NCBI GenBank assembly: GCA_043228905.1
Contig: JBHGNT010000001.1
Span: forward strand, 13,392,001 to 13,456,000
Origin: Azolla caroliniana
Lineage: Eukaryota; Plantae; Polypodiophyta
DNA length: 64,000 bases
Direction: 5' to 3'
The translations under genes were made by a program, and so were the position numbers. A model generated the notes under the pieces. The model ran no database searches. It saw only the letters and a program-made list of their open reading frames with translations, and was not told the DNA's origin. Positions 5,409-62,451 of this stretch are shown here, piece after piece. Numbering within the stretch: position 1 is the stretch's first letter; every line of letters starts with the position of its first letter.

Positions 5409-6149
5409 TAACGGGAACTGAAACACTCCCTATACGCAACGCTCGGCCACAACCGAGCTTAGAATCATACACAAAAAACGGGAAATAAAGAACGACACAA
5501 TGGAAGAGAAGAGTACGCAGGATGTTTACGTGGAAAACCCCACACTAGGGGAAAAACCACAGTAGCCCACAGGCTGCAAACTATCACTAGGTTAGTATGT
5601 ACAACAGTGAGTTCACGGAGGCAACAACCTCGTGCTCACGATCTTCGCCACAGGCGGCGGTTACAATAAAGGCAACAACCTCTTTCTCTCTTGACGGGAA
5701 CCCAACGTTCCTTATGCGTAACGCTCGGCCACAACCGAGATTCTTTTCATACACAGAAAACGGGAAGTAGAACACGACACAAAGAAGAGAAATGGTACAC
5801 AGGAGGTTAACGTGGAAAACCCCAAACTAGGGGAAAAACCACGGCAGCCCACAGGCTGCAAACTGTCACTATGTATGAATGTACAAAACAGTGAGTACAC
5901 GGAGGCAACGACCTCGGACTCACGATCTTCGCCACAGGCGGCGGTTACAACAAAGGCAACGACCTCGTCTCTCTCTCTCTCCCTGTACAGTTACGCACTC
6001 TCTCTTTTTCTTGCACCAACAAGAAAAATGACAACAACAACAGATACTAAAAGTTTGCCCTAAGTCATATTTATACTAATATGACTTTTCGGCTATTTAC
6101 AAATGTAGCCTCGATGGGCTCTCAGAAACATATTTACGAATATGTCTCT

Positions 6150-6398
6150 TCCTCCGGTTCATACCGGGCCTGCACCATCCGGCTCTCCGTAGCCGGGTAC
6201 TCCTCATTCGGTTCATACCGGGCCTCCACCATCCGGCTCTCCGTAGCTGGGTCCTCCTCATCCGGTTCATACCGAGCCTGCACCATACGGCTCTCCGTAG
6301 CCGGGTCCTCCTCATCCGGTTCATACCGGGCCTGCACCATCCGGCTCTCCGTAGCCGGGTCCTCCTCATCCGGTTCATACCGGGCCTGCACCATCCGG
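6150..6398 (-). repeat. 54-bp tandem repeat in U3 of B-family LTRs
   Basis: Unit tcctcctcatccggttcataccgggcctgcaccatccggctctccgtagccggg, ~4.5 copies; also at ~10678-10895 and ~19678-19953. Confidence 0.9.
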
Positions 6399-6427
6399 AG
6401 GGACCTGTTTCCCAACAAACTCCCCCT

Positions 6428-10209: not shown

Positions 10210-10954
10210 TTTCTGTGTCGATTTCGCTCTGATACCACTTGACGGGAACCCAACGCTCGGCCACAACCGAGATTCTTTTCATACACAGAAAACGGGAAGT
10301 AGAACACGACACAAAGAAGAGAAATGGTACACAGGAGGTTAACGTGGAAAACCCCAAACTAGGGGAAAAACCACGGCAGCCCACGGGCTGCAAACTGTCA
10401 CTATGTATGAATGTACAAAACAGTGAGTACACGGAGGCAACGACCTCGGACTCACGATCTTCGCCACAGGCGGCGATTACAACAGAGGCAACGACCTTGT
10501 CTCTCTCTCCCTGTACAGTTACGCACTCTCTCTTTTTCTTGCACCAACAAGAAAAATGACAACAACAACAGATACTAAAAGTTTGCCCTAAGTCATATTT
10601 ATACTAATATGACTTTTCGGCTATTTACAAATGTAGCCTCGATGGGCTCTTAGAAACATATTTACAAATATGTTTCTTCCTCCGGTTCACATCGGGTCTG
10701 CACCATCCGGCTCTCCGTAGCCGGGTACTCCTCATCCGGTTCATACCAGGTCTGCACCATCTAGCTCTCCGTAGCCGGGTACTCCTCATCCGGTTCATAC
10801 CGGGTCTGCACCATTTGGCTCTCCGTAGCCGGGTACTCCTCATTCGGTTCATACCGGGTTTGCACCATCCGGCTCTCCGTAGCCGGGTCCTCCTCATACG
10901 GTTTCGGCCGAGGCCGATAAGCACTGTTCTTCTCCCTTCCCATCCGAAGGGACC

Positions 10955-19510: not shown

Positions 19511-20032
19511 CTCTCTCTCTGTACACTATTGCGCGCTCTGATCTCACGTAGACAAGAAATAATAATAACAACAATTACTAAAAGTTTGCCCTAAGTCATA
19601 TTTATACTAATATGACTTTTCGACTATTTACAAATATAGCCTCGATGGACTCTCAGAAACATATTTACGAATATGTCTCTTCATCCGGTTCTTACCAGGT
19701 CTGCACCATCCGGCTCTCCGTAGCCGGGTACTCCTCATCCGGTTCATACCGGGTCTGCACCATCCGGCTCTCCGTAGCCGGGTACTCCTCATCCGGTTCA
19801 TATCGGGTCTGCACCATACGGCTCTCCGTAGCCGGGTACTCCTCATCCGGTTCATACCGGGTCTGCACCATCCGGCTCTCCGTAGTCGGGTCCTCCTCAT
19901 CCGGCTCATACCGGGTCTGCACCATCCGGCTCTCCGTAGCCGAGTCCTCCTCATACGGTTTCGGCCTCGGTCGAGCTTGTTCATCAGCATTGTTCTTCTC
20001 CCTTCCCATCCTGAGGGACCTGTCTCCCAACA

Positions 20033-39469: not shown

Positions 39470-39503
<34 letters not shown>

Positions 39504-39509
39504 ATGATA

Positions 39510-39570
39510 TGGCAAGACTCGAACCCATGACCTTATGCTACATGGGTCGAGCTCTTACCATTAGACTATG
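39510..39570 (-). promoter_or_regulatory. tRNA-type Pol III internal promoter (A box and B box), antisense, at U3 end of H-family LTR
   Basis: Minus strand TAGTCTAATGG (start 39568) and GGTTCGAGTCT (start 39525), 43 nt apart; also in the LTRs at 44735, 58236 and 62451. Confidence 0.7.
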
Positions 39571-39644
39571 AATTGTAATATGTAGAATATTATTTTCATT
39601 TATGCTTTATCATAGAAAATTGATGTATATTCCAGATCTCTCTG

Positions 39645-39690
39645 GAACATTCTAGAAGCTTCAGGATTATTCCTGAGAACACTATAAAAG
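39645..39690 (+). promoter_or_regulatory. Heat-shock element and TATA box in H LTR
   Basis: GAAcaTTCtaGAAgcTTC (39645-39662) about 20 bp upstream of tataaaag. Confidence 0.7.
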
Positions 39691-39925
39691 AGGGCACTAG
39701 GCATTATGTTGAACCAAATTGGTTCAACACCAGTCTTAAGCCTCTTAGCCGATTTGTACTTATCTTTCATATAATATAAGAGTTGTTGTCATCATCCTAT
39801 CTCGCTCTCTACTCTTCTCACTTCCTCTCTCTCGGGAATCTTACGCAGTCCCGTCCTCTTAGGACTAATAGTACTACTCTTCTTAGTACTAATTCAATCT
39901 CTGCTTTAGTACTATTCCTGATAGT

Positions 39926-39936
39926 TTGAACCAATT
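39926..39936 (+). promoter_or_regulatory. Self-priming PBS (Tf1/sushi type)
   Basis: ttgaaccaatt is the reverse complement of aattggttcaa (39717-39727), located ~30 nt after the TATA box. Confidence 0.8.
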
Positions 39937-39997
39937 TTCCTCTTTCCTCCAGCCTACTTGTCGTTCTCCCTCATCCTCCTACCCTTTTCCCTCTACT

Positions 39998-42900
39998 ATG
40001 GCTACTTTTAGCGCCCAAGAATATCAATCCGTTTTCTCCGAGTTACAGTGCCTAAAAGAAAAGTTTGTTGCCCTGGAACAAGAAAACCAACGGCTGATAG
40101 GGGATCTGCAACAAATCGCTCTAGAAAAGCAACAAACGCAGCAACAACATGGGGAGTTAGCGTTACGGGTGCAACAACTCGAAGCGGTATTGCAACAACA
40201 AGGATCAAGTCCCCAAGGATTTCATAAAGAGCCGAAGATTAGACTTCTTGTGAAATTTGATGGAACGCGGTCGCAATTCAGGGGATTCCTTAATCAGGTA
40301 CGATTAGTCCTCCAAATGCATCCTTCCCGATACCCCACTGATGCATCCCGAGTCGGCTTAATAGGCATGTTGCTTAGCGGCTCAGCCTTAGCATGGTTTG
40401 CTCCGCTTCTAGAAAAACAATCGCCCTTGCTTAATAACTTTGAAGATTTTATTAGTGAGTTCAAAGCCTGCTTTGGAGACACCGATAGCATCAGGACGGC
40501 GATCAACAAGATCCGGCGATTGCGTCAAGGCGATCGTCCAGCCTCTACCTACGCGGCGGATTTCCGCCTACTCGCTTCCGACATACCCTGGGATGATCAA
40601 GCACTAATGGAGCAGTTTCGCTATGGCCTGCAAAATGATGTCAAAGATCTACTTCTAACCTTCCCTGAAGAACCAAAGTCTCTTACGGAGGCAATCAGTC
40701 GAGCGGTCCGATGTGACAACCGCCTCTTCGAACGGCGTTCGGAACGTCAATTACAGATACCACGCGCTAGGCCGGAGCCCACTTACGCCGCAGTCGTGGC
40801 TAGACCATTTGCACGAGACATACCTCAAGCAAATACTTCGACACCGATGGAGATCGATACCATGCGTAGACGCGGCCCATTATCGGAAGAAGAAAAGCAA
40901 CGACGACGTGCAAATTGATTATGTCTTTATTGCGGTGGACCAGGGCATATCGCAATCAATTGTCCCCATAGGCCAAGAAGATAGGTAAATCAAATTGTAG
41001 CCTGTACTAAACCCGAGTCAATTCTTCCCTTAGGAGTGTCTGATAGTATTAATAGTACTAATAGAGTGTTTGATAGTATTCATAGTACTAATAGCCCAAG
41101 TATCTCAAATAAATTTGAAATCCTTAGTCAATTAGATGAAGAGTTAAACGATTGAGTCCAGCCAAAATAGGAGCCATTTGGTTGGACAGCAGCCCTAGAT
41201 CTGTACAGCCCATTAGTGGTTCCATTCCTTCCAAGCAAGTTAGCAATGTGTTCCTAGCCCAAGTCATTGTTAGTACTAAAAGTACTCCCCCAGTACCCGT
41301 CCTAGCACTTTTAGATTCCGGAGCTAATTCTTGTTTCATGGATCGAAATTTTGCCCAAGCTTCTCAGATATCCTTTAGAAAATTTCCTTGTCCCGCATCT
41401 GTAGTAGTCATTGATGGTCGTCCCATTGCTTCCGGGAATATTGTAGAAGAATCAGAACCCATTCAAGTTGTCCTAGGTAGTTTTGTGTGTGTAATATCAT
41501 TTAATATAATTAGTAGTCCAGAGCATCCCATTGTCCTAGGATTACCTTGGTTTGAATTACATAATCCAGCCATAGATTGGAGAACAAGAGAAGTCCGATA
41601 TCGACCACCCCAAGAATCAACTCACCAAGTTTCGACCATTTCACTCCATCAACTACGCGAAGAAGGACCCAAGGAGGAAATGTTCCTATTTGCAATATCA
41701 GTACATCCTTCCAGCACTATTAAGAAGGACTCCTCAGTACAACTTCCAGCAAAATATCATCCTTATGCCGATGTATTTGACAAGGTAAAAGTCGGTACCC
41801 TTCCTCATCACCGTCCCTATGACTGTCCCATCGATTTACAACCAGGAACCGAGCCACCATGGGGACCAATTTACAACTTGTCACCCATCGAGTTAGAAGT
41901 CCTTCGAGCCTACATAGAGGAGAACTTGGCAAGCGGGTTCATCCGCCATTCGAAATCTCCGGCCGGTGCACCCATCTTCTTTGTCAAGAAGAAAGATGGC
42001 TCACTTCGTCTTGTCGTTGATTACCGCGGATTGAATAAAGTCACCATCCGGAATAGGTATGCACTTCCTCTTATATCAAGTCTTTTAGAGCGAGTTAATG
42101 GTGCCAATTTTTTTACTAAAATCGACATACGAGGAGCGTATAACCTCGTGCGGATCCGACCGGGAGATGAGTGGAAGACCGCCTTTCGCACGTGGTATGG
42201 GCATTTCGAGTATACTGTTATGCCGTTTGGCCTAACCAATGCACCCGCAGTCTTCCAACACATGGAAAATGATATATTCAGAGACCTCTTGGATATCTGC
42301 TTGATCATTTATCTGGATGATCTATTGATCTATTCGAAGACCCAGGAAGAGCACGATTCTCATGTACTATTAGTACTAAAGCGACTCCGCGAGAATGGTC
42401 TTTATGCCAAGCTAGAAAAATGTAGCTTTGACTGCAAGCAAGTGGAATTTCTAGGCTACTTCATCTCCTCAAAGGGCATCGCCATGGATCCAGCTAAAAT
42501 CCAAATTGTACTAGAGTGGCAAATTCCACGGTCGGTACGATATGTACAATGTTTTCTAGGTTTTGCTAACTTCTACCGTAAGTTTATACAGGATTACTTG
42601 AAGATTATTTTACCTCTCACACAACTTATGAAGAAGGGCCAAGCATTTCTTTGGTCCATAGACGCAGATATGGCTTTTCGGCATCTTAAGAAAGCCTTTA
42701 CATCAGCACCGATTCTAGCTCATGTGGATACAAGCAAACCATTCATCATGGAGGCCGACGTATCAGATTTCGCCCTTGGTAGCCTCCTTTCTCAACAAGG
42801 CGATAAAGAAGAGTTGCATCCGGTGGCTTTCCATTCGCGCAAATTCGATGTCGCAGAAATCAACTACGAAATACATGACAAGGAGTTATTAGCCATCGTG

Positions 42901-44723
42901 GATTCATTTGTACAATGGCGGCATTTCTTAGAGGGCTCTCCACATCAGGTCATTGTCTTTAGCGATCATAAAAATCTTGCTTATTTTCAGAACGTTCGCG
43001 TACTAAATCGACGGCAAGCTTAGTGGGCGCAATTCCTTACGCATTTCGACTTCAAAATCACATATCGACCGGGGAAGCAGCAAGGAAAAGCAGATGCACT
43101 ATCACGGTGTTCATATCTTGCACCTCGGCCTGGTGACGCAACATTTGATAATCAAAAGCAAGTAATCTTGGGACCAACACGATTGCACACGACGCGGATT
43201 TTTCACACCCCGATGGATTCACGGATTACCGATGACATACGTGCAACCTTGAAGACGGATAGTTTTGCTCAAGACATCCTGGCGCACATTGATACTTCTC
43301 GGGCATCCTGTTCTCAGTCTCAACAACCAGGTATTGACTACCGACAATTCGAATATCATGATGGTTTGTTATTCTTTAAAAAGCGCGTATATGTCCCCGA
43401 TTGCTCCTGTCGCCTTCAAATCGTCCAACATTGTCACGACACCCATATGGCGGGACATTTCGGTAGTACTAAGACGTTGGAGCTAGTGCAGCGATCTTTT
43501 TGGTGGCCCCACATGCGCCGTTTTGTCGACGACTACGTTCGGACCTGTGATGCTTGCTGCCGAGCAAAGATGCCACGACACCATCCATATGGCTTGTTGG
43601 AACCCTTACTGATTCCAAGTAAGCCGTGGCAGTCTATTTATCTTGATTTTATCACAGATCTGCCGGTCTTGAAGGAGTTCGATTCTATCCTAACCGTCGT
43701 CGATTGATATACGAAGACGGCACATTTTGTGTCGTGTACTAAAGCCATCACTAGCGAGGAAACCGCCGCTCTTGTTATGCGTGAGGTATTTCGGCATCAT
43801 GGCCTCCCAAACAATATTATCAGTGACCGAGGCCCGCAATTTGTCTCCAAATTTTGGCAGCATCTCTTCAAGATGCTCAAGGTCTCCTGCAACCTCTCCT
43901 CCGGCTACCATCCTCAGACCGACGGGCAGGCGGAACGAACAAACCAAACGCTAGAGCAATATCTCCAGTGTTTCCTGAGTTATCAACAGGACGATTGGGC
44001 GAGATTCTCCACTTTGCGGAGTTTGCGTATAATAATGCTATTCACTCCTCGACTCGGGTCTCCCCATTTTTCGCTTATACCGGTTTCCATCCTCGTTGGT
44101 CGGTGATCGACACTCCAGAGCTACCTACCAACCCTCGTGCCGAGGATCATTTGGAGAGGCTACGCAAGATCCAGATGGATCTCTCTACTCACCTTCGTCA
44201 TGCTCAACACACACAGAAGACCTATGCGGATCGTCATCGGATTCCCTCCTCTTTTGCCATCGGAGATCGAGTATGGCTCTTACGTCGTCACATCAAGACT
44301 ACTCGACCGTGCGACAAGTTGGATTATCAACGACTCGGTCCCTTCCGTATTACGGGTAAGATTAATGATGTCACCTTCCGCCTTGATCTCCCTCCGTAGC
44401 TTCATATACATCCGGTTTTCCATTGTTCTCTTCTTGAACTTTATAAAGCAAACACCATTCCCGATCGTGTGACACCACCGCCGCCCCCGCTGGAGTTGGA
44501 CGCCGGCCCAGAGTATGAAGTTGTTGCCATCCTCGATTCCAAACTTGTTCGCAACAAACTTTATTATTTGGTCGATTGGCTCGGTTATAGTCCAAGCGAA
44601 CGTACTTGGGAACCCATCGAGCATGTTGCCAATGCTCAGGATCTTCTTGCTGATTTCCACCGAAAGTATCCGGACAAACCCGGTCCGCAATCAGCACCGA
44701 CTCGTTCCACTCATCGTCTTTAA
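39998..44723 (+). pseudogene. Element H gag (39998-41155) and pol in the -1 frame (PR, RT, RNase H, IN, chromodomain), with stops
   Basis: [76 protein letters not shown]. Confidence 0.92.
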
Positions 44724-45258
44724 GGGGGAGATAGTGTCATGATATGGCAAGACTCAAACCCATGACCTTATGCTACATGGGTCGAGCTCTTACCATTAGA
44801 CTATGAATTGTAATACGTAGAATATTATTTTCATTTATGCTTTATCATAGAAAATTGATGTATATTCCAGATCTCTCTGGAACATTCTAGAAGCTTCAGG
44901 ATTATTCCTGAGAACACTATAAAAGAGGGCACTAGGCATTATGTTGAACCAAATTGGTTCAACACTAGTCTTAAGCCTCTTAGCCGATTTGTACTTATCT
45001 TTCATATAATATAAGAGTTGTTGTCATCATCCTATCTCTCTCTCTACTCTTCTCACTTCCTCTCTCTCGGGAATCTTACGCAGTCTCGTCCTCTTAGTAC
45101 TAATAGTACTACTCTTCTTAGTACTAATTCCATCTCTGCTTTAGTACTATTCTTGACACTCTCTCTTCCTCTCACACGCATATCACATAATCTTCCGCTT
45201 AACTTAATCACATAATTAGGTACTAATTAACCCTTGCTCAATTACCTAATTATTAATA

Positions 45259-45801
45259 AGGGGGAGTACAAGCGAGAACCGGATACCGTCTGAACCGGTA
45301 CGAGCCGAAGCGGACACCGAAGATCATCCGAATTGGATACCATCCGAAGCGGACATCAATCGAAAGGAACCGACCCAAGTTGAGCTTGAGGGGGCATGTC
45401 GAGAATCAAGCTCAACATAGTGCAACGTGTGAACACACCTTTTGAGAATCTATGATTACTCAAAGGTCAAGAGTCACACCACTACTCTCTACACATAACT
45501 AATCAGTTACATATTCCCCATGACTATGAGTCTTCACATTCCCTAAGAGAGAGTGGTTGTTGTAGTTAGTAAATGAAGAGAGAAGGTGACTATATATAAA
45601 ACACCCTCCTTATACTTCATATTAAATCGGTTGTGACCCCTTGTAATGCTACATTTTGTATTTGCTATTCTACTTGTGAATATACACCTTCTTCTTGAGT
45701 ATACATTTTTCTATCTATCTTGTGTTCTCTCTATTGTCCTCTAATTCCTCTCACACATACACATAACACACATCTCTTCCGCTAGTACCCAATTCTTTAC
45801 A
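45259..45801 (+). mobile_element. Element I: copia 3' fragment with PPT and LTR (45397-45801)
   Basis: gttgagcttgagggggca followed by tgtcgagaatcaagctcaac...tttaca; the PPT context matches A, F and G. Confidence 0.7.
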
Positions 45802-46109
45802 ATGGCCTTGAACCAATTTGGTTTTTGGATGATTGATAGATCCTTATTTATAAATACCTATAGAGTAATATAGAACACTCTAGAATATTCTAGGACATTC
45901 TAGAATATAGAGTAATCTATAAGGTTTATAGAATATTCTAGGACATTCTTGAATGTAAAGTAATATAGAATATTCTAATGATATTAGATTATATATTCTA
46001 AAAACTATACATATAAATATATTATTATAATGGTTTAGGATTTAAGATGTGTATAACAAGGTTGTGGGCTCAAATCCTTTTGGGGCATAATGTGAGTGTC
46101 ATCATGACA
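45802..46109 (-). mobile_element. Truncated Tcn1-like LTR
   Basis: Ends catgaca like the H and J LTRs; has the ttgaaccaatttgg R motif, TATA, TTCTAGAA arrays and degenerate A/B boxes at 46023/46067. Confidence 0.65.
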
Positions 46110-47138: not shown

Positions 47139-48982
47139 GGTTTCTAAATTTTACAGTAGGAAATTTGAAACCCCCAAAAATCTGGAAAAGAATATATTTT
47201 GGATAAAATTTAGAAAAAGAGTTGAACGTAAGTAATTGATATTTGAAATACATAAGCTAAGATTGGATTCTTTTGTCATAAAGAAAGTATAAGAGCTTTG
47301 TTTGGACCCAATTATACAAAAGTCCTATATCAATGATCCTTAATAACTATTCTGGTATTTCCTATGACGATTCTATTTATGAGTTACTGATTTTGATAGA
47401 AATGTAACTTTTGCTTCCTCATGCCTTGCATGAACTACTTAGAAGGAAACAAGCAACAAAGAAAGCAACAAGCATCATCCTCCATGAAAGGTCATATTGT
47501 TGAGATTCAGAAAGAAAGTATGAAACAAACCAAAGATGTGGAAAGGGTGTGGAGTGATGTCATGGCTATAATACAGGTCCAACATTGAAGATGGAAACTA
47601 CATGAAATTTATAACCTAAAATAAGCTTCTTTGGGTCTTCTATTTATATCGTTGGTATTTATGAAGATAACCTTTATTGTAATAAGTATTTTAAGTAGAC
47701 ATTGAACAACAAAATGATTAATTTTATCTCATTTTTATAGTGTGATGTTTTACATTTCAAATGGAAATATAACATATGTTGTCATTTGTTTGATCAATGT
47801 ATTTGGGAAAAAATAATGTGGTGGCTTCTTATGAGTTTATCCATTAAACGAAACACAATGTTAATTTGTTAGTAATTTCATTATTGATATGCATTTGGAT
47901 TGTCCCATGTGTGCTCTTTGAGATATGTATGTCAAGTTCAAGATTGATTTTTTTGTAAATTACATTCTTTTTTATCACATTACATTCTTCATATGTCTCA
48001 ATAAACTATCGGCATTAACTTATATGTGGCTTATATATGATATACCTCTAATGCTTTTGGGTAATGTTTTTGAATTGTTTGTGCATTAGTTTATACTTTA
48101 CACATTGTGTTTTCAATTTGTGTGGTACTTGATGAAGCATTTCTACAAAATTGGGTATGATGTTTAATGTTCTTTCACAAATTTGTGAGTCTTCAATTGT
48201 ATAGAGGGTCATAGATACATTCTAGGTTTCTTGGATTGGAAACTATGTGTGCATGTATATTTTCTATAAGGGCATTTAAAATGCGTGGTTATCAAAAAAA
48301 ATATTGGTAATAGGGGGTATTTTTATTAATCTTTTTTTTCCAAAAGGGTCTCTAAAATAGTAAAAAACATCCGTGTAAGGGGTTAATAAATGATGTCATG
48401 AACGCACGTGATACAACCTTCTTATATATTGTGGAGTCCCCAAGAGTTAACCTACCATCATCCTATACATCAAAGGTCATAAAAGCTTATTCCCCAATAT
48501 AGGCTTTTACTCCAATCAAAACATCCAATGGAGTAAATAAACTCAGCCACTTCTGTGTAGAAGATATAAATTGCATCTAAATCTTAGAAAGGGTAGTTTG
48601 TACTGCAAAATACATTGTCTTTCTGCCTCTTATATTATTAAGAATTATCGTTCATTGGTCTATAGGTGTAGACAAGAATGATGTCCACGCACCTATAGAT
48701 TGTGGGGGTCCGCGATCTAATTCTGCTCATGCAGATCGAGTATGCTTTCCCAAAATATGTCCCCAATAGTCAATAAAATACGAATTTCAAATCAAGGGTT
48801 GTCTACAAAATTCAGTTTCTGTTTTTCAAAATCTCTTAACTAAATCAAGAGAAACATATTTCCATTAATCAAGAACAGATCGAGCAAATCTGTCTTCCCA
48901 TTTTTGTTAGGGACAAGTATAATAGAGCAGAGAAAAGACAAGACTAGAAAAAAAGAGAGAGGAAAAGAACAATAACTCAACT

Positions 48983-49096
48983 TGTATGTGTGTGTATATG
49001 TATATATGTATGTGTGTGTATATGTATATATATGTTTGTGTATGTGTGTATATATGTATGTGTATGTATGTATGTATGTGTCTATATGTATATGTA
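48983..49096. repeat. (TGTA/TG/TA)n microsatellite within the N LTR
   Basis: tgtatgtgtgtgtatatgtatatatg... Confidence 0.9.
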
Positions 49097-49812
49097 AACG
49101 AATGGTTTTATAATATTCTTAGGGCCATTTTCTATTCTCGAATACCACGAATATTACGGATGTCGAATCTCACGAATATCACGCATGGGTCAATCTATGG
49201 GTATAAGCATGCATATGTAGCTCAATTGGTAGGGTTGCCCAATAGAGACCATTAGGACTTGGGTTCAATCCCTACCTTCCTCCGTGGCACATGTTTATGA
49301 CATTATCCTCCCTCTAAGGTCACCTCTTAACACCTGCACCCAGGTTATGAGGGTATCGTTGATGAAAAGCGTCAATTGCCTCCAACGCATTTTCTAAATG
49401 TGTAACTGGTTCCATGCGGTGTCCGAAAGAGGTTACATTTTGTAAATATGTAATTGGTTCTCATGTGGTGTCCAAAAGAGGGTAACCTTTCCATAAGACC
49501 AAGTATTGAAGTCTTCTTCGACGCAAGCGAGAGTCGAGGATCCGGTCAACCTCGTACTCCTCACTTGTTGATAATTCCACGGGCGGGAACGGCACAGGTT
49601 GTCGTCCCGGAATGTGAGAAGGATGGTAGAGTTCGAGGAGAGACGTGAAAAACATTGTGAAGCCAAAATATGGGGGGAAGCGCTAACCGGAAGGCGACTA
49701 GGTTAACGCGCTCGAGGATACGGAAGGGTCCTAGATTTTTGTAGTCGAGCTTCGCGTAGGGATGGGTGGTTGCGATGTGGCGACATTGCAGCCAAACCAT
49801 GTCAGTCAGCGT

Positions 49813-50568
49813 TGTCGTGCCTTTTGGCATCAAATCGTGGCGTGAGTCAGGTGGGAATCGTTGGGGTTTTGGACTAGGAGGAGGAAGAATTTGAGGCTAA
49901 TAAGAATAAGAGTATATTATAAGAAAGAGATATTGAAAACTTGTGAATCTCACAAGTATATTGTATTAGATTAATCAATACTAAGATAAGAATATGAATT
50001 TAGATTGAAAGATAAGGATATAGAAACCTCGTGAATCCCATGAGTATAATTTATTAACTGGTGTTTTAGAAATATATCCAATTTCCAAAAGATTTCACAC
50101 TTCATTACATTGTGCTCCCCATCCTTATATAGTGATGAGAGAGTCTTACCAATCCATGCTTTTTCTCTAACTATTAACTCCATGCTTTTTCTATCAATAG
50201 ATTATATGCGTTCTCTAACATGCTTCTTCTAAAAGTGATCATGCTTTTTCTAACCTCATGCGTTTTTATCGACTATATTGTTTATGCACGTTAGACGTAA
50301 CTTTTTTCTATCATGCGTTTTTCTTCTAACTAAAGCTTTTCATAGAAAATATACGTGAACTTACCTTTCTATGTGGGATATTTACTTTTTAACACTTATG
50401 ATGTGTTAGTATAATGGTAAGCCCTTACATTATAAACATGGAGGTACAAGGTTCAAATCTTGCCCTATGCATTTAATATATATTTTGATATTTCTTTCTT
50501 TTTCTTCATATTTATTCAATCGGTTATTTTATATGTTTTTCATGTAGTGTACAAAATGCACTACGATA
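49813..50568 (-). mobile_element. Element O: probable solo LTR inserted in the integrase of N
   Basis: Starts tgtcgtg and ends acgata; interrupts N coding sequence; imperfect TSD (gcgt/gtgt); A/B boxes at 50407/50450. Confidence 0.55.
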
Positions 50569-52419
50569 GTGTGAGCTTTATATTGTTTGCCAACGGCACA
50601 GAGCTCGAGGGAGAGGTCACGATGGACATCTTGTAAGGTGTGCGCACGCCTCTCGGCCGACGGATTGACGAAAATCTCTAGAATGGAAATGTTGAAACAA
50701 GGGTGGAAACCGTAGTTTGCAAAGAATGGGGAAACCTTAGTTGAGGCATGGATACTATTATTGTAGGCAAATTCTACCATGGCAAGGAAGTCCACCCAAT
50801 CGTCTTGTTGGTAGTTGATTGTACACCAGAGGTATTGTTCGAGGATTTGGTTGACTATTTCAGTTTGGCCATCAGTTTGAGGGTGGTGCACGGTTGACAG
50901 GTTTTAGAAGTTCTGAATGTCTGTAGAAGTCAGCGCCAGAAGTGGGAGATAAATTGAGGGCCTTGATCAGAAGTGACATCCTCGGGGAAGTCGTGTAATC
51001 GGACGACATTTTTCACAAAAAGGTCAGTTGTCTCCTCCCCCAAAATGGTTTTCTAACATGGGACAAAGTGAGCCATCTTGGAAAACCGATCGACGACCAC
51101 TAGCATGGTGTCATGGTCACCGACCTGAGGAAGGTCGGTGATAAAGTCCATGGAGAGAGATGCCCAAGGTCAACTGGGAATTGGAAGTGGGTGTAGAAGG
51201 CCGTATGGACGATAATGAGCCGCTTTGGAGCGAGCACAAACGTCACAAGTTTTGATAAATTCTTTGACCAATTTCCAAGGTTGGTGCCACCAAAACCGCC
51301 GAGACATCAACGCCAGCGTTTTCATGACCCCAAAGTGTCCGACAAGAGGATCATCGTGGCAAGTTTGTAGTACTCGGATGCGACATGTGCCAACTGGTAC
51401 TTAAAGGAGGTGATTATGATAGAGTGGCCCATCCTGAATTGTAAAGTGACTGAGATCCGAGCTTTGCATTTCTTGGGATGGGTTGTTGAGGCGCGCCATG
51501 ATGTCAGTAGCGAAAGGGTCCAACATGGTTACTTGGGTGATCTCATTGAGCAAGGAATCATCATCCAACATATAGGTTGTGAACGTGTGGAGTTGATCGG
51601 GCCACAATAAACAATGTGATTGTTGAGAATATGTGTCGTCACCTGGGCGTAGTGCAAAGTCGGGTTGCCGAGCGAGAACATCCACTTTCCCATGTTGAAC
51701 GTTGGGTCGAAACAAGATTTCGAAGTCGTAATCGGCGAGCCTACCTCCGATTCAACGTACAAGTGGTGGTGAAGTAGATGAGATTCTTGTGGTCGGTTAG
51801 CACCTAAATACGATGTTGGGCCCCAGCCAGATAAGGTCATCATTCGGCGAAGGCCAAGATGATAGTTGCAAGCTCCTTGTTGTCGTGACTCTTGAGTAGG
51901 AAGCAGAGAGAGAGCGATGGCGATAGAGATAACGATAACGATAGAGATGGCGAGAGCGGTAGAGATAGCGATAGTGATAGAAAGAGAGTGAAAGAGGGAG
52001 AGAGTGCGAGAGAGAGAAAAGTATAAGTGAGAGATAAGAAATGGGAATGCGATTATATTATGAGAAAGAAGATTACAAGGAGTAGGCTAAGGGCTAAAGA
52101 CTGGTGTTGAACCGAATGAGTTGTGATGAGTGTATGGACTCTTATTTATAGGCCCTTATGGAGTATTCTAGAATGTTCTAGAATATTTTAGATATTTATG
52201 AATAATAATAATAATAAATATAATCATGAAATATTCAAGAACATTCTAGAATAATCTAGAATGTTCTAAATATCTCGTAATAACTAAACATATAATTATT
52301 ATGATTACATCTCACATATGTTATTACAATGGTTAAAGTACAATATGTAAACCAAGAGGTTATGGGTTCGATTCCTGGTTCGCCAAGATGAATGTCATGA
52401 TAAGCCAAGATGTATGTCT

Positions 52420-53748
52420 TCATGACATTATCCCCCCTTTTCGATGACGAGTTGCACGAGTCGGAAGAAAAGAGTTCCGACTTGGTTTATGAGGATATTG
52501 GTTGTGAAATGCCACAACCATGTCGGAGGCATTGGCAAGATGTTCGGCAGGCTCCCATGTTCGATCATTAGGTGTATAGCCTAACCAATCAACCAAGTAG
52601 TATAGTTTGTTGTGAATGATCTTGGAGTCGAGGATAGCGGCAACCTCATATTCAGAGCCATTGGAAACGTCAATTGGAGGTGGGGGAGGTGTAACACGAC
52701 CCGGAATAGAGCTCGTTGTGTAAGGCTCCAAAAGTGAAACATGGAAGACCGGGTGAAGACGCATATGAGGAGGAAGATCAAGTCGAAATGTCACATCATT
52801 GATCTTACCACTTATGACATATGGGCCAAAACGTTGATAATCCAATTTGTAGCAAGGTCGGGTCGTTTTAATGCTACCTTGTAAGAGCCATACACGATCG
52901 CCTACTTGAAATGTAGTCGATGAATCACGCCGATGACGGTCAGCAATCTTCTTTTGAGTGTTTTGGGCTTCACATAAATGATGCAAAAGCATATCCTGAA
53001 CTTCTTGGAGTCGAGTGAGCCGATCTTCAGCAGCTGGGTTTTTTGGGAGTTCAGGATGTTCAAGCATCGTCCAACGAGGATGGTACCCAATGTTTGCAAA
53101 AAATGGGGAATATCCAGTAGAAGAATGCTCGGAGTTGTTATAAGCAAATTCTGCCAAAGGTAGTAAATCCACCCAATCATCTTGTTGATAGTTGACAAAA
53201 CAACGTAGATATTGCTCGACTGTTTGGTTGGTGCGCTCACTCTGCCCATTAGTCTCTGGATGGTAGCCGGAAGAGAGTTTACAAGAAGTATGTAAGAGTC
53301 TGAACATGTGCCGCCAAAATTTCGAGATGAATTGGGGACCCCGATCACTGATAATATCATCCGGAAGACCATGATGGCGAAACACCTCCCGCATGAGTAA
53401 ATCAGCTGTCTCTTGACTAGTAATGGTCTTTGTGCATGGAAGGAAATGTGCCATCTTCGTAAAACGATCGACAACCGTGAGAATCGAATCAAATCCCTTG
53501 GAAGGTGGAAGATCCGTAATAAAGTCCAAGGAAATAGATTTCCATGGGCTCTCCGGAATAGGCATTGGCTGTAATAAGACATATGGATGATGTCGAGGCT
53601 TTTTTGATCGGCAACATGTATCACAGCTACGAACATAATCCGTAACAAAATGGCGAAGCCGTGGCCACCAATATCGGCGAGAAATCAACTCAAAAGTCTT
53701 GTGGATGCCGAAGTGTCCCGCCATTGGTGTGTCATGACATTGTTGCAT
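52420..53748 (-). CDS. Element J integrase with chromodomain (open 442-aa ORF)
   Basis: HDTPMAGHFG..CDTC, SISLDFITDLP, SDRGPQF, FGPYVI, EYEVAAILDS..WLGYTPNDRTWEP. Confidence 0.9.
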   Translation of the reverse strand: MQQCHDTPMAGHFGIHKTFELISRRYWWPRLRHFVTDYVRSCDTCCRSKKPRHHPYVLLQPMPIPESPWKSISLDFITDLPPSKGFDSILTVVDRFTKMAHFLPCTKTITSQETADLLMREVFRHHGLPDDIISDRGPQFISKFWRHMFRLLHTSCKLSSGYHPETNGQSERTNQTVEQYLRCFVNYQQDDWVDLLPLAEFAYNNSEHSSTGYSPFFANIGYHPRWTMLEHPELPKNPAAEDRLTRLQEVQDMLLHHLCEAQNTQKKIADRHRRDSSTTFQVGDRVWLLQGSIKTTRPCYKLDYQRFGPYVISGKINDVTFRLDLPPHMRLHPVFHVSLLEPYTTSSIPGRVTPPPPPIDVSNGSEYEVAAILDSKIIHNKLYYLVDWLGYTPNDRTWEPAEHLANASDMVVAFHNQYPHKPSRNSFLPTRATRHRKGGIMS

Positions 53749-54054
53749 GTTCAGACTCTTCGACTATATCTCCTGATGCTATAGGGCGACCATCGATGAC
53801 TCCTACAGCTACTGGGTTTGGGAGTTTTTTCAAGATGATGTTTTGAGTCAATGCAAACTCGCGATCCATGAAACAAGAATTGGCTCCGGAATCTAGGAGG
53901 GCAGAGGCTAGGGCGCGATGACCTGTAGATGTGCTAAGCTCGACTTGTGCAGAAAAAACTCTACTAACTTGATTTGATGAAATGGAACCACAACTAGGTA
54001 CTGACTCTACATAACTAGGATGGTCCAACCAAATGGCTCCTATTTTGGCCGGAC

Positions 54055-55182
54055 TTATTCGTTTAACACATCCTCTAATTGGCTCAAGACATCAAATCTA
54101 TTCTCATGGCATGGGCTAGTAGGCTTAGTACTTAAGTTATTAGAAGTGATAGTAGAACTTGATGTAGGGTTGTCATGTGCACTTACTTGGTAAACTTGAC
54201 GCCTGGGTTTATGTGGACAATTCACAGCTATATGTCCTGGACCACCACAGTAGAGGCATAGGCGATGTGCCCGACGTCGTTGTTTCTCAGCATCTGATAA
54301 GGGCCCGCGACGTTGTGTCGACTCTATTTCCATCGGAGTGGGACCATCCCTCGTAACGGGTCTAGAACCTTGTGGCGGTGTGGCGACTATAGAAGCGTAT
54401 GTCTGTTCCGGTTGGCGGCGTAACATTTGTTGACGTTCAGAACGTCGCTCAAATAGGCGATTATCACATCGCACAGCTCGGCTAATAGCTTCAGTAAGAG
54501 ACTTTGGATCTTCATGGAAAGTAAGAAGAAGATCTTTGACATCGTTACGCAAACCCTGACGGAAATGATCCATTAAGGTTGCCTCATCCCAAGGGATGTC
54601 GCATGCCAAGAGACGGAAATCTGCGGCATAAGCTGAAGCGGGACGATCTCCTTGTCGGAGTCTTCGAATCTTGTTTATTGCAGTCCTAGTGCTATCCGTA
54701 TCTCCAAAACTAGCTTGAAACTCCTTAACGAATGCCTCGAAATCCTCCAGTAATGGTGATTTCTTCTCAAGAAGTGGTGCAAACCATGCTAACGCTGTAC
54801 CGCTTAGCAAGGTTCCTATTAATCCCACACGGGCAGCATCAGTTGGATACCGATTGGGATGTAACTGAATCACCAAACGAACTTGATTCAGGAAACCTCG
54901 AAAGAGAGATCTGGTACCATCAAACTTGGCAGGGAGGCTAATCTTTGGTTCCCTTGGGGAGTTTTGAACCCCCGCCGCTTGTTCTCGTAATGCTAATATA
55001 GTAGCCTCAAGTTGATGAACCCGTTGTGATAACTCCTCATATTGATGAGCTTTCTCAGTACTGACTTGTTGAAGATCCCCGAGTAGCCTTTGATTTTCTT
55101 GCTCTAATGCCACAAACTTAGTGGTGAGCATATCGAGCTCCGAAAGGACACGCATATACTCTTGCTTGCTGACCGACTCCAT
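54055..55182 (-). CDS. Element J gag (intact, 375 aa)
   Basis: Retrotrans_gag-like core and CLYCGGPGHIAVNC knuckle; homologous to gag of H and K. Confidence 0.9.
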   Translation of the reverse strand: MESVSKQEYMRVLSELDMLTTKFVALEQENQRLLGDLQQVSTEKAHQYEELSQRVHQLEATILALREQAAGVQNSPREPKISLPAKFDGTRSLFRGFLNQVRLVIQLHPNRYPTDAARVGLIGTLLSGTALAWFAPLLEKKSPLLEDFEAFVKEFQASFGDTDSTRTAINKIRRLRQGDRPASAYAADFRLLACDIPWDEATLMDHFRQGLRNDVKDLLLTFHEDPKSLTEAISRAVRCDNRLFERRSERQQMLRRQPEQTYASIVATPPQGSRPVTRDGPTPMEIESTQRRGPLSDAEKQRRRAHRLCLYCGGPGHIAVNCPHKPRRQVYQVSAHDNPTSSSTITSNNLSTKPTSPCHENRFDVLSQLEDVLNE

Positions 55183-55814
55183 AACCGCGGGGGAAAAAGA
55201 AAGAAGGATAAAGAAGAAAGCTTGCTAGGGTTATTGGAGAAAGGGAAAAGAAATATTCGGTTCAAACTGTCGTGACTCTTGAGTAGGAAGCAGAGAGAGA
55301 GCGATGGCGATAGAGATAACGATAACGATAGAGATGGCGAGAGCGGTAGAGATAGCGATAGTGATAGAAAGAGAGTGAAAGAGGGAGAGAGTGCGAGAAA
55401 GAGAAAAGTATAAGTGAGAGATAAGAAATGGGAATGCGATTATATTATGAGAAAGAAGATTACAAGGAGTAGGCTAAGGGCTAAAGACTGGTGTTGAACC
55501 GAATGAGTTGTGATGAGTGTATGGACTCTTATTTATAGGCCCTTATGGAGTATTCTAGAATGTTCTAGAATATTTTAGATATTTATGAATAATAATAATA
55601 ATAAATATAATCATGAAATATTCAAGAACATTCTAGAATAATCTAGAATGTTCTAAATATCTCGTAATAACTAAACATATAATTATTATGATTACATCTC
55701 ACATATGTTATTACAATGGTTAAAGTACAATATGTAAACCAAGAGGTTATGGGTTCGATTCCTGGTTCGCCAAGATGAATGTCATGATAAGCCAAGATGT
55801 ATGTCTTCATGACA

Positions 55815-58235: not shown

Positions 58236-61200
58236 TGTCATGATATGGCAAGACCCGAACCCATGACCTTATGCTACATGGGTCGAGCTCTTACCATTAG
58301 ACTATGAATTGTAATTTTTAGGATATTATTTTCATTTATGCTTTATCATAGAAAATTGATGTATATTCCAGATCTCTCTGGAACATTCTAGAAGCTTCAG
58401 GATTATTCCTAAAAACACTATAAAAGGAGGCACAAGGCATTGTTTTGAACCAAATTGGTTCAACGCCAGTCTTAAGCCTCTTAGCCACTTGTACTTATCT
58501 TTTCACATAATATATTAGTTGTTATCATCATCTTTCTCTCTCTCTCATCCTCGCTATCTCTCTCTCTCCTCTTCTCACTTCCTCTCTCGGGAATCTTACG
58601 CAGTCCCGTCCTCTTAGTACTAAGAAGAGCAGTACTATTAGTACTAAGAGGACGGGACTACGTAAGATTCCCGAGAGAGGAAGTGAGAAGAGGAGAGAGA
58701 GAGATAACGAGGATGAGAGAGAGAGAAAGATGATGAGAGCAGCTAATATATTATGTGAAAAGATAAGTACAAGTGGCTAAGAGGCTTAACACTGGCGTTG
58801 GACTGAGGTGCAAGATATGAACGCCGTGATAGTGCATCTGCTTTTCCTTGCTGCTTCCCCGGTCGATATGTGATTTTGAAGTCGAAACGCGTGAGGAATT
58901 GCGCCCACCGAGCTTGCCGTCGATTTAGTACGCGAGCATTCTGAAAATAAGCAAGATTTTTATGATCGCTAAAGACAATGACCTGATGTGGAGATCCCTC
59001 TAAGAAATGCAGCCATTGCACAAATGAATCCGCGATGGCTAATAACTCCTTGTCATGTATTTCGTAGTTGATTTCTGCGACATCGAATTTGCGCGAATGG
59101 AAAGCCACCGGATGCAACTCTTCTTTATCTCCTTGTTGAGAAAGGATGCTACCGAGGGCGAAATCTGATGCGTCGGCCTCCATGATGAATGGTTCGCTTG
59201 TATCCACATGAGCTAGAATCGGTGCTGATGTAAAGGCTTTCTTAAGATGCCGAAAAGCCATATCTGCTTCGATGGACCAAAGAAATGCTTGGCCCTTCTT
59301 CGAAAGTTGTGTGAGAGGTAAAATAATCTTCGAGTAATCCTGTATAAACTTACGGTACAAGTTAGCAAAACCTAGAAAACATTGTACATCTCGTACCAAC
59401 CGTGGAATTTGCCACTCTAGTACAGTTTGGATTTTAGCTGGATCCATGGCGATGCCCTTTGAGGAGATGACGTAGCCTAGAAATTCCACTTGCTTGCAGT
59501 CAAAGCTACATTTTTCTAGCTTGGCATAAAGACCATTCTCGCGGAGTCACTTTAGTACTAATAGTACATGAGAATCGTGCTCTTCCTGGGTCTTCGAATA
59601 AATCAATAGATCATCCAGATAGATGATCAAACAGATATCCAAGAGGTCTCTGAATATATCATTTGCCATATGTTGGAAGACTGCAGGTGCATTGGTTAGG
59701 CCGAACGGCATAACAGTATACTCGAAATGCCCATACTGCGTGCGAAAGGCGGTCTTCCATTCATCTCCCGGTTGGATCCGCACGAGGTTATACGCTCCCC
59801 GTAGGTCGATTTTAGTAAAAAACTTGGCACCATTAACTCGCTCTAAAAGGCTTGATATAAGAGGAAGTGCATACCTATTCCGTATGGTGACCTTATTCAA
59901 TCCGCGGTAATCAACGACGAGACGAAGTGAGCCATCTTTCTTCTTGACAAAGAAGATGGGTGCACCGGCCGGAGATTTTGAATGACGGATGAACCCGCTT
60001 GCCAAGTTCTCCTCTATGTAGGCTCGAAGGATTTCTAACTCGGTGGGTGACAAGTTGTAAATTGGTCCCCATGGTGGCTCAGTTCCTGGTTGTAAATCGA
60101 TGGGACAGTCATAGGGACGGTGATGAGGAAGGGTACCGGCTTTTACCTTGTCAAATACATCGGCATAAGGATGATATTTTGCCGGAAGTTGTACTGAGGA
60201 GTCCTTCTTAATAGTGCTGGAAGGATGTATTGATATTGCAAATAGGAACATTGCCTCCTTGTGTCCTTATTCGCTTAATTGATGGAGTGAAATGGTTGAA
60301 ACTCGGTGAGTAGACTCTTGGGGTGGTTGATATCGGACTTCTCTTGTTCTCCAATCTATGGTTGGATTATGTAATTCAAACCAAGGTAATCCTAGGACAA
60401 TGGGATGCTCTGGACTACTAATTATATTAAATGATATTACACACACAAAACTACCTAGGACAACTTGAATGGGTTCTGATTCTTCTACAATATTCCCGGA
60501 AGCAATGGGACGACCATCAATGACCACTACAGATGTGGGACAAGGAATTTTCCTTAGGGATATCTGAGAAGCTTGGGCAAAATTTCGATCCATAAAACAA
60601 GAATTAGCTCCGGAATCTAAGAGTGCTAGGACGGGTACTGGGGGAGTACTTTTAGTACTAACAATGACTTGGGCTAGGAACACATTGCTAACTTGCTTGG
60701 AAGGAATGGAACCACTAATGGGCTGTACAGATCTAGGGCTGCTGTCCAACCAAACGGCTCCTATTTTGGCTGGACTCAATCGTTTAACTCTTCATCTAAT
60801 TGACTCAGGATTTCAAATTTGTGTGAGATACTTGGGCTATTAGTACTATGAATACTATCTGACACTCTATTAGTACTATTAATACTATCAGACACTCCGA
60901 AGGGAAGAATTGACTCAGGTTTAGTACAGGCGACGATTTGATTTACCTGTCTTCTTGGCCTATGGGGATAATTGATGGCGATATGCCCTGGTCCACCGCA
61001 ATAAAGACATAATCGATTGGCACGTCGTCGTTGCTTTTCTTCTTCCGATAACGGGCCGTGTCGACGCATGGTGTCGATCTCCATCGGTGTCGGAATATTG
61101 GCTTGAGGTACATCGCGTGCAAACGGTTTAGCCGTGACTGAGGCGTATGTGGGTTCCGGCCGAGAGCGTGGTATTTGTAATTGACGTTCCGAACGCCGTT

Positions 61201-62451
61201 CGAAAAGGCGGTTGTCGCATCGGACCGCTCGACTGATTGCCTCCGTAAGAGACTTTGGTTCTTCGGGGAAGGTTAAAAGCAAATCTTTGACATCATTGCA
61301 CAAGCCGTAGCGAAACTGCTCCATGAGGGCCTGATCATCCCAGGGGATATCTGAGGCGAGTAGACGGAAATCCGCCGCGTAGGCAGAGGCTGGATGATCG
61401 CCTTGAAGCAATCTTCGGATCTTGTTGATCGTCGTCCTGATGCTATCGGTATCTCCAAAGCAGGCTTTAAACTCACCAATAAAATCTTCAAAGTTATTAA
61501 GCAAGGGCGATTGTTTTTCTAGAAGCGGAGCGAACCATGCCAAGGCTGAGCCGCTAAGTAACGTGCTTATTAGGCCGACTCGAGATGCATCAGTGGGATA
61601 TCGGGAAGGATGCATCTGGATGACTAAGCGTACCTGATTAAGGAATCCCCGGAATTGCGATCGCGTTCCATCAAATTTCACAGGAAGTCCAATCTTGGGC
61701 TCTTTATGAAATCCTTGGGGACTTGATCCTTGTTGTTGCAACGCTGCTTCGAGTTGTTGTACTTGTAACGCCAACTCCCCATGTTGTTGTTGCGTTTGTT
61801 GTTTTTCGAGAGCGATTTGTTGCAGATCCCCTATCAACCGTTGGTTTTCTTGTTCCAGGGCAACAAACTTTTCTTTTAGGCACTGTAACTCAGAGAAAAC
61901 GGATTGATATTCTTGGGCGCTAACAATAGCCATAGTATAGGGAAAAGGGTAGGAGGATGAAGGAGAACGACAAGTAGGCTGGAGGAACAACAAATGAAAT
62001 TGGTTCAAACTGTTAGGAATAGTACTAAAGCAGAGATGGAATTAGTACTAAGAAGAGCAGTACTATTAGTACTAAGAGGACGGGACTGCGTAAGATTCTT
62101 GAGAGAGGAAGTGAGAAGAGGAGAGAAAGAGATAGCGAGGATGAGAGAGAGAGAAAGATGATGACAGCAGCTAATATATTATGTGAAAAGATAAGTACAA
62201 GTGGCTAAGAGGCTTAAGACTGGCGTTGAACCAATTTGGTTCAAAACAATGCCTTGTGCCTCCTTTTATAGTGTTTTTAGGAATAATCCTGAAGCTTTTA
62301 GAATGTTCCAGAGATCTGGAATATACATCAATTTTCTATGATAAAGTATAAATGAAAATAATATCCTACAAATTATAATTCATAGTCTAATGGTAAGAGC
62401 TTGACCCATGTAGCATAAGGTCATGGGTTCGAGTCTTGCCATATCATGACA
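58236..62451 (-). mobile_element. Element K: H-family gypsy with inverted LTR ends and no integrase
   Basis: LTR in + orientation 58236-58623; inverted R-U5 piece to 58800; RNase H, RT and PR 58801-60779; gag; LTR in - orientation 62011-62451. Flanks ATTGA/ATTGC, and host L is contiguous across the insertion. Confidence 0.85.
60776..61933 (-). CDS. Element K gag (intact)
   Basis: ORF 60776-62008 with first ATG at MAIVSAQ; CLYCGGPGHIAINY; ends EELND*. Confidence 0.88.
   Translation of the reverse strand: MAIVSAQEYQSVFSELQCLKEKFVALEQENQRLIGDLQQIALEKQQTQQQHGELALQVQQLEAALQQQGSSPQGFHKEPKIGLPVKFDGTRSQFRGFLNQVRLVIQMHPSRYPTDASRVGLISTLLSGSALAWFAPLLEKQSPLLNNFEDFIGEFKACFGDTDSIRTTINKIRRLLQGDHPASAYAADFRLLASDIPWDDQALMEQFRYGLCNDVKDLLLTFPEEPKSLTEAISRAVRCDNRLFERRSERQLQIPRSRPEPTYASVTAKPFARDVPQANIPTPMEIDTMRRHGPLSEEEKQRRRANRLCLYCGGPGHIAINYPHRPRRQVNQIVACTKPESILPFGVSDSINSTNRVSDSIHSTNSPSISHKFEILSQLDEELND

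Follow-up and report, generated by a model that had tools for sequence, protein, structure and literature searches.

Chromoviruses carry a chromodomain integrase that is expected to direct insertion into heterochromatin, and how such elements stay transcribable after targeting that compartment is an open question. The 64-kb stretch of DNA analyzed here (the window), a nest of Ty1/copia and Ty3/gypsy elements, raises it in a specific form: what does a tRNA-type RNA polymerase III (Pol III) promoter do when it lies antisense at the U3 tip of a chromovirus long terminal repeat (LTR)? One such LTR belongs to element H, a Tcn1-like Ty3/gypsy chromovirus on the plus strand (39500..45158; 5.66 kb) with stops in its gag-pol and a 5-bp target site duplication (TSD) within a CT repeat. 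The element encodes gag, RT, RNase H, integrase, and a chromodomain (PF00385) between two 424-bp LTRs, 98% alike, at 39500..39923 and 44735..45158 (both plus strand). A candidate Pol II TATA box at 39683..39689 (+) is followed 34 nt later by the predicted 5' end of the element RNA (39717..39727, +), which is complementary to an 11-nt primer binding site (PBS) at 39926..39936 (+); this is a self-priming arrangement with no tRNA PBS. The polypurine tract (PPT) is at 44722..44734 (+). The self-primer sits within a local palindrome (39710-39728), through which the PBS sequence occurs a second time immediately before the predicted start of the RNA.

The hosts of the module had been described as independent of tRNA primers, and this held for H and for two further elements, K and J: in all three, the PBS pairs with the predicted RNA 5' end, which lies about 35 nt after the TATA box, as in self-priming Tcn1-like chromoviruses (N, O, and F, described below, were not assessable). 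The aromatic cage residues Y, W, and Y of the chromodomain were found in J and relatives. The nearest named matches are fungal, amphibian, or fish elements at 45 to 54%, as expected for the Tf1/Sushi group, and there was no named Tcn1 reference among the matches. In the part of the source available to us, REXdb knows the combination of an aromatic-cage chromodomain and a self-priming PBS in plants only from the Tcn1 elements of mosses and club mosses (PMC6317226). Together with the intron-containing tRNA-Tyr-like copies described below, this points to a non-seed land plant as host. Elsewhere in the window, 54-bp tandem repeats are tied to a copia family (6093-6497, 10621-10971, and 19624-20028).

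In the H 5' LTR, the module is a tRNA-derived type-2 promoter covering tRNA positions 1 to 68 (39509..39575, minus strand), antisense to the element and directed outward from the U3 tip. It contains an A box (T8...G18 G19) at 39558..39568 (-), an AGGT at positions 44 to 47 (39530..39533, -) that is as conserved as the B box, and the B box itself at 39515..39525 (-), 15 nt from the LTR tip. The 3' LTR repeats it, with the A box at 44793-44803 and the B box at 44750-44760. J carries the module in both of its LTRs, which are 99.8% alike: the 3' LTR (51881..52427, -; A box 52322-52332, B box 52365-52375) and the 5' LTR (55268..55814, -; A box 55709-55719, B box 55752-55762). The K 5' LTR (62011..62451, -) has a plus-strand module with its A box at 62383-62393 and B box at 62426-62436, and a K-family LTR at an inversion (58236..58623, +) has an A box at 58294-58304 and a B box at 58251-58261. 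Plus-strand modules were also found in the N 3' LTR (48906..49301, -; a 12-nt A box at 49218-49229, B box 49262-49272), in the truncated LTR F (45800..46109, -; A box 46023-46033, B box 46067-46077), and in O (49846..50597, -; A box 50407-50417, B box 50450-50460), an LTR-like insertion of about 750 bp with uncertain ends that splits the N integrase.

Every A and B box string and spacing listed in the original prediction is present in the window sequence. Its treatment of H and K as sharing one pair of boxes was right in part: the boxes are there and the two are one family (LTRs 87 to 98% alike), but two of the four H/K copies carry a one-base change in the B box, at 44756 in the H 3' LTR (position 56, private to this copy) and at position 58 in the K copy at 58251-58261. 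The predicted orientation, antisense and outward from the U3 tip, could be read directly from the PPT and the TG tip in H, K, J, N, and F; for O, neither the ends nor a TSD could be fixed, and its status as an LTR is uncertain. We counted eight module pairs in the window with at most one mismatch and nine with at most two, against 0.05 and 0.22 in 60 dinucleotide shuffles; the consensus was chosen after the motifs had been seen, and the nine copies represent five families. Two of the host elements are rearranged. J (51881-55814) has no matching TSD despite its near-identical LTRs, a large internal deletion joins its gag to its integrase, and a short duplication lies within its U3 tip. In K (58236-62451), a near-perfect inverted duplication (58458-58803) forms the end of the plus-strand LTR and connects it to internal sequence of a minus-strand copy; the arrangement would yield a long fold-back RNA.

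The distribution of the module was followed in related elements fetched by their integrase, blind to the LTR. This set comprised 111 loci, including the best 80 of 540 confirmed metagenome loci (of an estimated 2,800 or so) ranked by likeness. A 3' LTR could be scored, meaning a PPT followed by at least 110 nt of LTR, in 72 of the 111; no PPT was found in 34, and 5 were too short. The antisense module at a spacing of 43 to 44 was present in 11 of the 72 scorable LTRs and also in a short contig (L061). The remaining 61 lacked it, and therefore chromoviruses do not require the module. A profile of 13 modules searched against 97 sources gave matches below E 1e-6 only to the nine window copies and 12 loci, the 13 training rows matching by construction. 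Viral and genome collections yielded only distant elements; viral contigs scanned for the pattern contained 34 matches, with no integrase close to any of them, and we regard these as chance.

In a first integrase tree (79 of 99 pieces, 20 near-duplicates having been dropped), the module bearers form one 15-row clade with an SH-aLRT of 94, and its other two members, L004 and L014, end before the module site. The clade, to which H and J belong, also holds in a second tree of 39 rows (84 to 98), but there N groups with L047, a relative without the module (97.6); both trees are quick searches without bootstrap. The two N integrase pieces are each, separately, closest to L047, and the N module is itself peculiar in its 12-nt A box, its weaker AT block, and its greater likeness to tRNA-Tyr-like copies. 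Since N groups with a module-less relative, the module was gained twice, swapped, or lost; a separate gain or a swap is the probable history of the N copy. Across 12 families (one taken per near-identical group), the position in U3 is fixed and no tail or TSD was seen, and the module is inherited with one integrase clade, so that the copies are not independent SINE insertions; such insertions are what the original prediction had named as fatal to it. What one clade inherits, at a constant position and in a constant orientation, is a decayed tRNA-type unit at the U3 tip.

A donor for such a unit might be sought in the window itself. Between 57 and 2430, degenerate tRNA-Tyr-like copies with an intron stand in tandem (Rfam RF00005 matches at 57-140, 1326-1403, 1839-1921, and 2347-2430; a further, partial one near 1930-2000); the repeat units measure 0.4 to 1.3 kb, and T-run terminators are absent. 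Derivation of all modules from this array was rejected: only N is similar to it (17/23 and 20/34, versus 6 to 10 of 23 and 14 to 18 of 34 for the others), and the part that N shares with the array is common to many tRNAs. A free-standing unit with an A box, AGGTC, a B box, and a T-run lies outside any LTR in a related locus (L017:11733-11792, -; E 1e-5) and is possibly the decayed head of a SINE of the donor type. A separate case is found in two related elements, where the coding region of the protease-RT linker contains, in antisense, a sequence like a B box together with a weak A box (L011:1006-1062 and 6330-6386, -), probably a product of chance.

The existence of a free-standing unit shows that donors exist, and look-alikes also arise in coding DNA, so one has to consider a neutral relic: a single insertion of a SINE or tRNA copy close to the tip of U3 that has persisted because the integrase attachment site is next to it. 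The LTR tip is constrained by integrase in any case. The pattern of conservation across the 12 families tells against this account. Ten positions (R9, Y11, G18, G19, A44, G46, G53, T55, R57, and A58) are kept in all 12 and seven more (T8, A14, G45, T47, T54, C56, and C61) in 11; T20 and Y60 are also invariant or kept in 11, and G10 is kept in only 5. The spacing from G18 to G52 is 34 to 35 in all 12 families, while the distance from B box to tip varies from 15 to 52 nt. Mean pairwise identity is 0.66 in the A box, 0.83 at positions 44 to 48, and 0.75 in the B box, versus 0.41 in the spacer, 0.42 to 0.46 upstream, and 0.35, the lowest value, between the B box and the tip. The stretch nearest the attachment site is thus the least conserved, yet the boxes are retained between elements whose integrase identity drops to 52 to 56%. 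On this sequence evidence, we consider a neutral relic largely refuted and very improbable.

The conserved block at positions 44 to 47, beside the boxes, had been absent from the original prediction. According to the accessible part of one study, a base immediately before the B box is contacted by TFIIIC in yeast, binding is 5-fold weaker with a G45A change, and transcription is influenced by positions +44 to +47 (PMC11724288). Greater conservation of the boxes than of the adjacent U3 is seen not only among families but also within family H, as compared across contigs of four organisms; these values are weighted by depth, so they are not copy counts, and about 30 nt at each end appear to lie outside the assessed part. 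From the tip through position 44, only 1 of 34 sites varies at 8% or more, and this is the site of the private change at position 56 in the window H copy, where 88 to 93% of the depth is the consensus base. By the same threshold, 4 of 23 spacer sites, 4 of 12 A-box sites, and 17 of 66 sites in the adjacent upstream U3 vary. None of the variable A-box sites is at T8, A14, G18, or G19, and two of the four keep R9 and Y11. Most variants of the A box leave its consensus intact. The B box and positions 44 to 51 taken alone against the upstream U3 give a P of 0.06. In many genomic copies of the H LTR, the D-loop part is longer by one base (window 44791), giving a spacing of 44 instead of 43; this was seen, as loose ends, in all four runs and in L007.

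The predicted absence of a full cloverleaf was borne out: at the modules, ARAGORN called no genes and RNAalifold formed no pairs. An Rfam RF00005 search of the window, a check suggested with the original prediction, matched only the tRNA-Tyr-like array and none of the modules, and ARAGORN found no tRNA genes in the 111 related loci. Cloverleaf covariation did not rise above shuffles, with the anticodon stem 37% paired, and the constraint is therefore not on tRNA folding. A different fold, which is not that of a tRNA, was seen in part of the set. In H, an arm at 39541-39559 (positions 18 to 36) pairs with 39510-39529 (positions 48 to 67) in a long hairpin on the minus strand (39510..39559; z -5.7). 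The same two stretches pair in five of the 12 families (H, N, L080, L008, and L009; P at most 0.035 each) and not in J, F, O, L003, L030, L010, or L013. In N and L008, other bases make up the hairpin. Pairing is better between matched arms than after permutation of the arms (P 0.01), which is not the case for a control arm (P 0.66), but the P is 0.14 without H and L080 and the signal is gone without N. The hairpin is a real but partial trait. Sequence resembling a B box also occurs on the sense strand in H, L080, and L008; a second promoter there was rejected, since most families lack an A box at the right distance.

Folding on the sense strand brings in an account based on the genomic RNA, in which the U3 tip would anneal to the D and T arms of a host tRNA or would form a hairpin beside the PPT that aids dimerization, strand transfer, or plus-strand priming. 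The U3 of Ty3 binds the T and D arms of tRNAiMet (PMC5371799, in the part available), the module lies 15 to 52 nt from the PPT in the packaged RNA, and the sense strand folds in H, N, F, L003, and L007 (z -2.2 to -4.1). However, the PBSs of H and J are self-priming, hence no tRNA primer is needed; variation at positions 10, 49 to 51, 59, and 62 to 65 breaks contiguous tRNA pairing and spares the bases read by TFIIIC; and the fixed spacing and AT block are DNA-level traits. We regard this account as improbable.

Upstream of the H module is a block of 82% AT (39576..39625, -) that is a candidate platform for TFIIIB. Over the two 25-nt bins upstream of the module, AT content is 77% and 83%, versus 62 to 67% deeper in the LTR, and the rise holds even where the inner enhancer is GC rich. 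The best 50-nt AT block averages 0.84 in 10 LTRs with the module versus 0.64 in 20 without it, LTRs that are not independent of one another. The 50-nt leader is 72 to 90% AT in 11 of the 12 families, and plant tRNA genes likewise have an AT-rich leader of 50 nt, as far as the consulted text of that study goes (PMC11700998). A CAA near the start was present in only 3 of 12 families, compared with 36 to 45% of plant tRNA genes in the same source. Runs of four T's are absent from inside the unit in all 12 families (3.5 expected; P 0.009). A4, which serves as control for the opposite strand, is likewise scarce (1 versus 3.0 expected; P 0.14), and therefore the avoidance of terminators is not clearly strand specific. 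On the inner side of the module, the Pol II enhancer blocks differ among families. An array of GAAnnTTC at 39645..39662 (+), between the H module and the TATA box, is what we take to be heat-shock-element-like; comparable arrays, with the same assumption, stand between module and TATA in J, L007, L010, and L080, and presumably RY or ABRE-like repeats take their place in L008, L009, L013, and L030. The enhancer block has been swapped among families while the Pol III module stays.

Judged from sequence, the module is best described as a selected, DNA-level Pol III promoter signature, because the bases read by TFIIIC and a fixed spacing are conserved, the upstream DNA is AT rich, T4 is absent inside, and the cloverleaf has decayed. 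The constraint appears to be on these bases, the spacing, and the AT leader, and not on tRNA structure. TFIIIC and TFIIIB probably bind the module. What follows from binding may be described as follows. One self-priming Tcn1-like clade keeps, at the tip of U3 in each LTR and in antisense orientation, a decayed unit derived from a tRNA or a SINE, of which only the promoter bases and their spacing are conserved. TFIIIC would bind this unit and place TFIIIB on the AT-rich block on its LTR-facing side, and together they would form a chromatin barrier that travels with the element and holds the neighboring enhancer and TATA box of Pol II accessible. With these 110 to 250 bp from the module, the arrangement would be a divergent Pol III/Pol II pair, and short outward Pol III transcription would be a by-product. 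Elements that are expected to land in heterochromatin through their chromodomain integrase would gain most from it. By analogy with tRNA gene (tDNA) and ETC barriers, we give this role in chromatin opening or barrier formation slightly less than an even chance. According to the available text of one source, yeast tRNA genes and ETC sites stop heterochromatin in a TFIIIC-dependent manner, and in human such sites block enhancers (PMC12409998); no demonstration of TFIIIC barrier activity in plants was found in the literature examined.

The avoidance of T4 and the hairpin in five families count against pure occupancy and point to an RNA product. The hairpin would thus give weight to a transcript that the original prediction did not see. 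Such a product could be a short outward Pol III RNA, folded as a long hairpin and complementary to U3 (in the case of the 3' LTR, to the PPT as well), that tunes the element by yielding self-limiting small RNAs, serving as a silencing decoy, or partnering the 3' end of the genomic RNA. Its terminators would fit this: T4 is missing inside the unit yet occurs between the B box and the tip in 5 of 12 families (1.9 expected; P 0.018), and antisense LTR RNAs regulate Ty1, according to the accessible part of a 2025 review (PMC12786077). Against it stand the seven families without the hairpin, the dependence of the pairing signal on a few of them, and the fact that quasi-palindromes can arise or homogenize without selection. 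Furthermore, H, with the strongest hairpin, has no terminator inside its LTR, and neither does J have a T4 between B box and tip. We consider hairpin RNA unlikely as the main explanation.

Binding of TFIIIC could also serve integration or nuclear positioning, the module acting as a tether to Pol III sites or as a landing pad for elements that target Pol III genes. The DNA signature would be the same as for a barrier, and Ty1 targets Pol III genes (PMC12786077, in the part seen). But an insertion just upstream of the module was found in none of the seven assessable window LTRs (both of H, both of K, both of J, and F), and no module-bearing element lies within the window's tRNA-Tyr-like array. 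We hold this use of TFIIIC to be quite improbable. The barrier reading can be extended to a fuller proposal, which we advance tentatively and with well under even confidence: autonomous, heterochromatin-seeking elements captured an outward Pol III promoter at least twice, each copy brings a TFIIIC barrier and a divergent Pol III/Pol II pair, and some families may also make an antisense hairpin RNA.

The original prediction knew of no description of such a module. That stands only in part: Pol III tRNA promoters inside LTRs are known from Helenus, and an antisense version in an autonomous element was not found. No description of this module was found in the literature searched, and an annotation may exist in Repbase or in subscription papers; the portions seen of PMC9033089, PMC2864245, and PMC13578239 contain none of a tRNA-type module in LTRs. 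As far as the available text of its description goes (TRIMp3; Kojima 2024, PMC10886601), Helenus likewise has a tRNA-derived unit within the LTR, with boxes A and B conserved and no functional cloverleaf, and families in its supplement also keep AGGT before the B box, as here. Its function was inferred from conservation only, and the proposed origin is insertion of a SINE into an LTR. Helenus elements, however, are nonautonomous, under 1.3 kb, and tRNA primed, whereas the elements described here encode gag-pol, self-prime, and keep a Pol II TATA box. Moreover, the unit in Helenus families SMo, PTrit, AmAr, CCin, PSt, and ToGe is in sense orientation and mostly near the 3' end of the LTR, where it would make element RNA; here, it is antisense at the U3 tip. 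By the same text, the autonomous partners have to be transcribed by Pol II, and a passing remark has it that "not a few LTRs" in Repbase hold part of a tRNA (PMC10886601). Two defining features of Helenus, nonautonomy and sense orientation, thus fail here, and therefore the module is a captured Pol III promoter in its working and yet not a TRIMp3.

Cassandra and Ajax, in the parts of the sources consulted, are further cases in which a plant LTR acquired a Pol III promoter that selection has preserved (PMC10886601, PMC12786077). They differ in that the promoter is type 1 and derived from 5S rRNA, the elements are nonautonomous TRIMs, and it drives genomic RNA in sense; for plant LTR elements, the 2025 review lists Cassandra alone as using Pol III in place of Pol II (PMC12786077). 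Tcn1-clade chromoviruses share with the elements described here the domain order, the aromatic-cage chromodomain, the self-priming PBS, TG..CA LTRs, a 5-bp TSD, and non-seed plant hosts; the portions seen of their descriptions mention no tRNA-like or Pol III element in the LTRs (PMC6317226, PMC2864245), and most relatives examined here lack the module. The insulators of yeast and human, tDNA and ETC sites, have the TFIIIC-binding B-box geometry beside a Pol II promoter, as here, but they are fixed host loci at which occupancy has been measured, whereas the plant module is a mobile copy in every LTR and is known from sequence (PMC12409998, available part).

Retroelements can also carry tRNA-related sequence in U3 that, in the genomic RNA, is complementary to a tRNA, as does HIV-1 with its U3-R tRNA-Lys3-like sequence. 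Ty3 has a bipartite PBS in which tRNA-related sequence in U3 is complementary to the tRNA in the genomic RNA (PMC5371799, in part). Ty3 and HIV-1 match one primer tRNA contiguously (for Ty3, see the same source), whereas the elements described here self-prime and conserve scattered promoter bases and their spacing.

What is new is accordingly the autonomous, antisense, U3-tip version; the idea of tRNA parts in LTRs is itself not unique. Pol III promoter capture is extended from nonautonomous TRIMs to autonomous elements, and since the orientation of the module is opposite to that in TRIMs, its purpose would be different. A conserved, abundant, clade-wide module beside a Pol II promoter of the stress type offers clear targets for point mutation; with it, the continued transcription of chromoviruses in heterochromatin and TFIIIC barrier activity, documented in yeasts and animals, would both become testable in a tractable plant lineage. 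If both the capture of the promoter and its reading as a TFIIIC barrier are true, the module would for the first time make TFIIIC insulation in plants directly accessible to study, and these elements would have seeded thousands of TFIIIC sites through the host genome.
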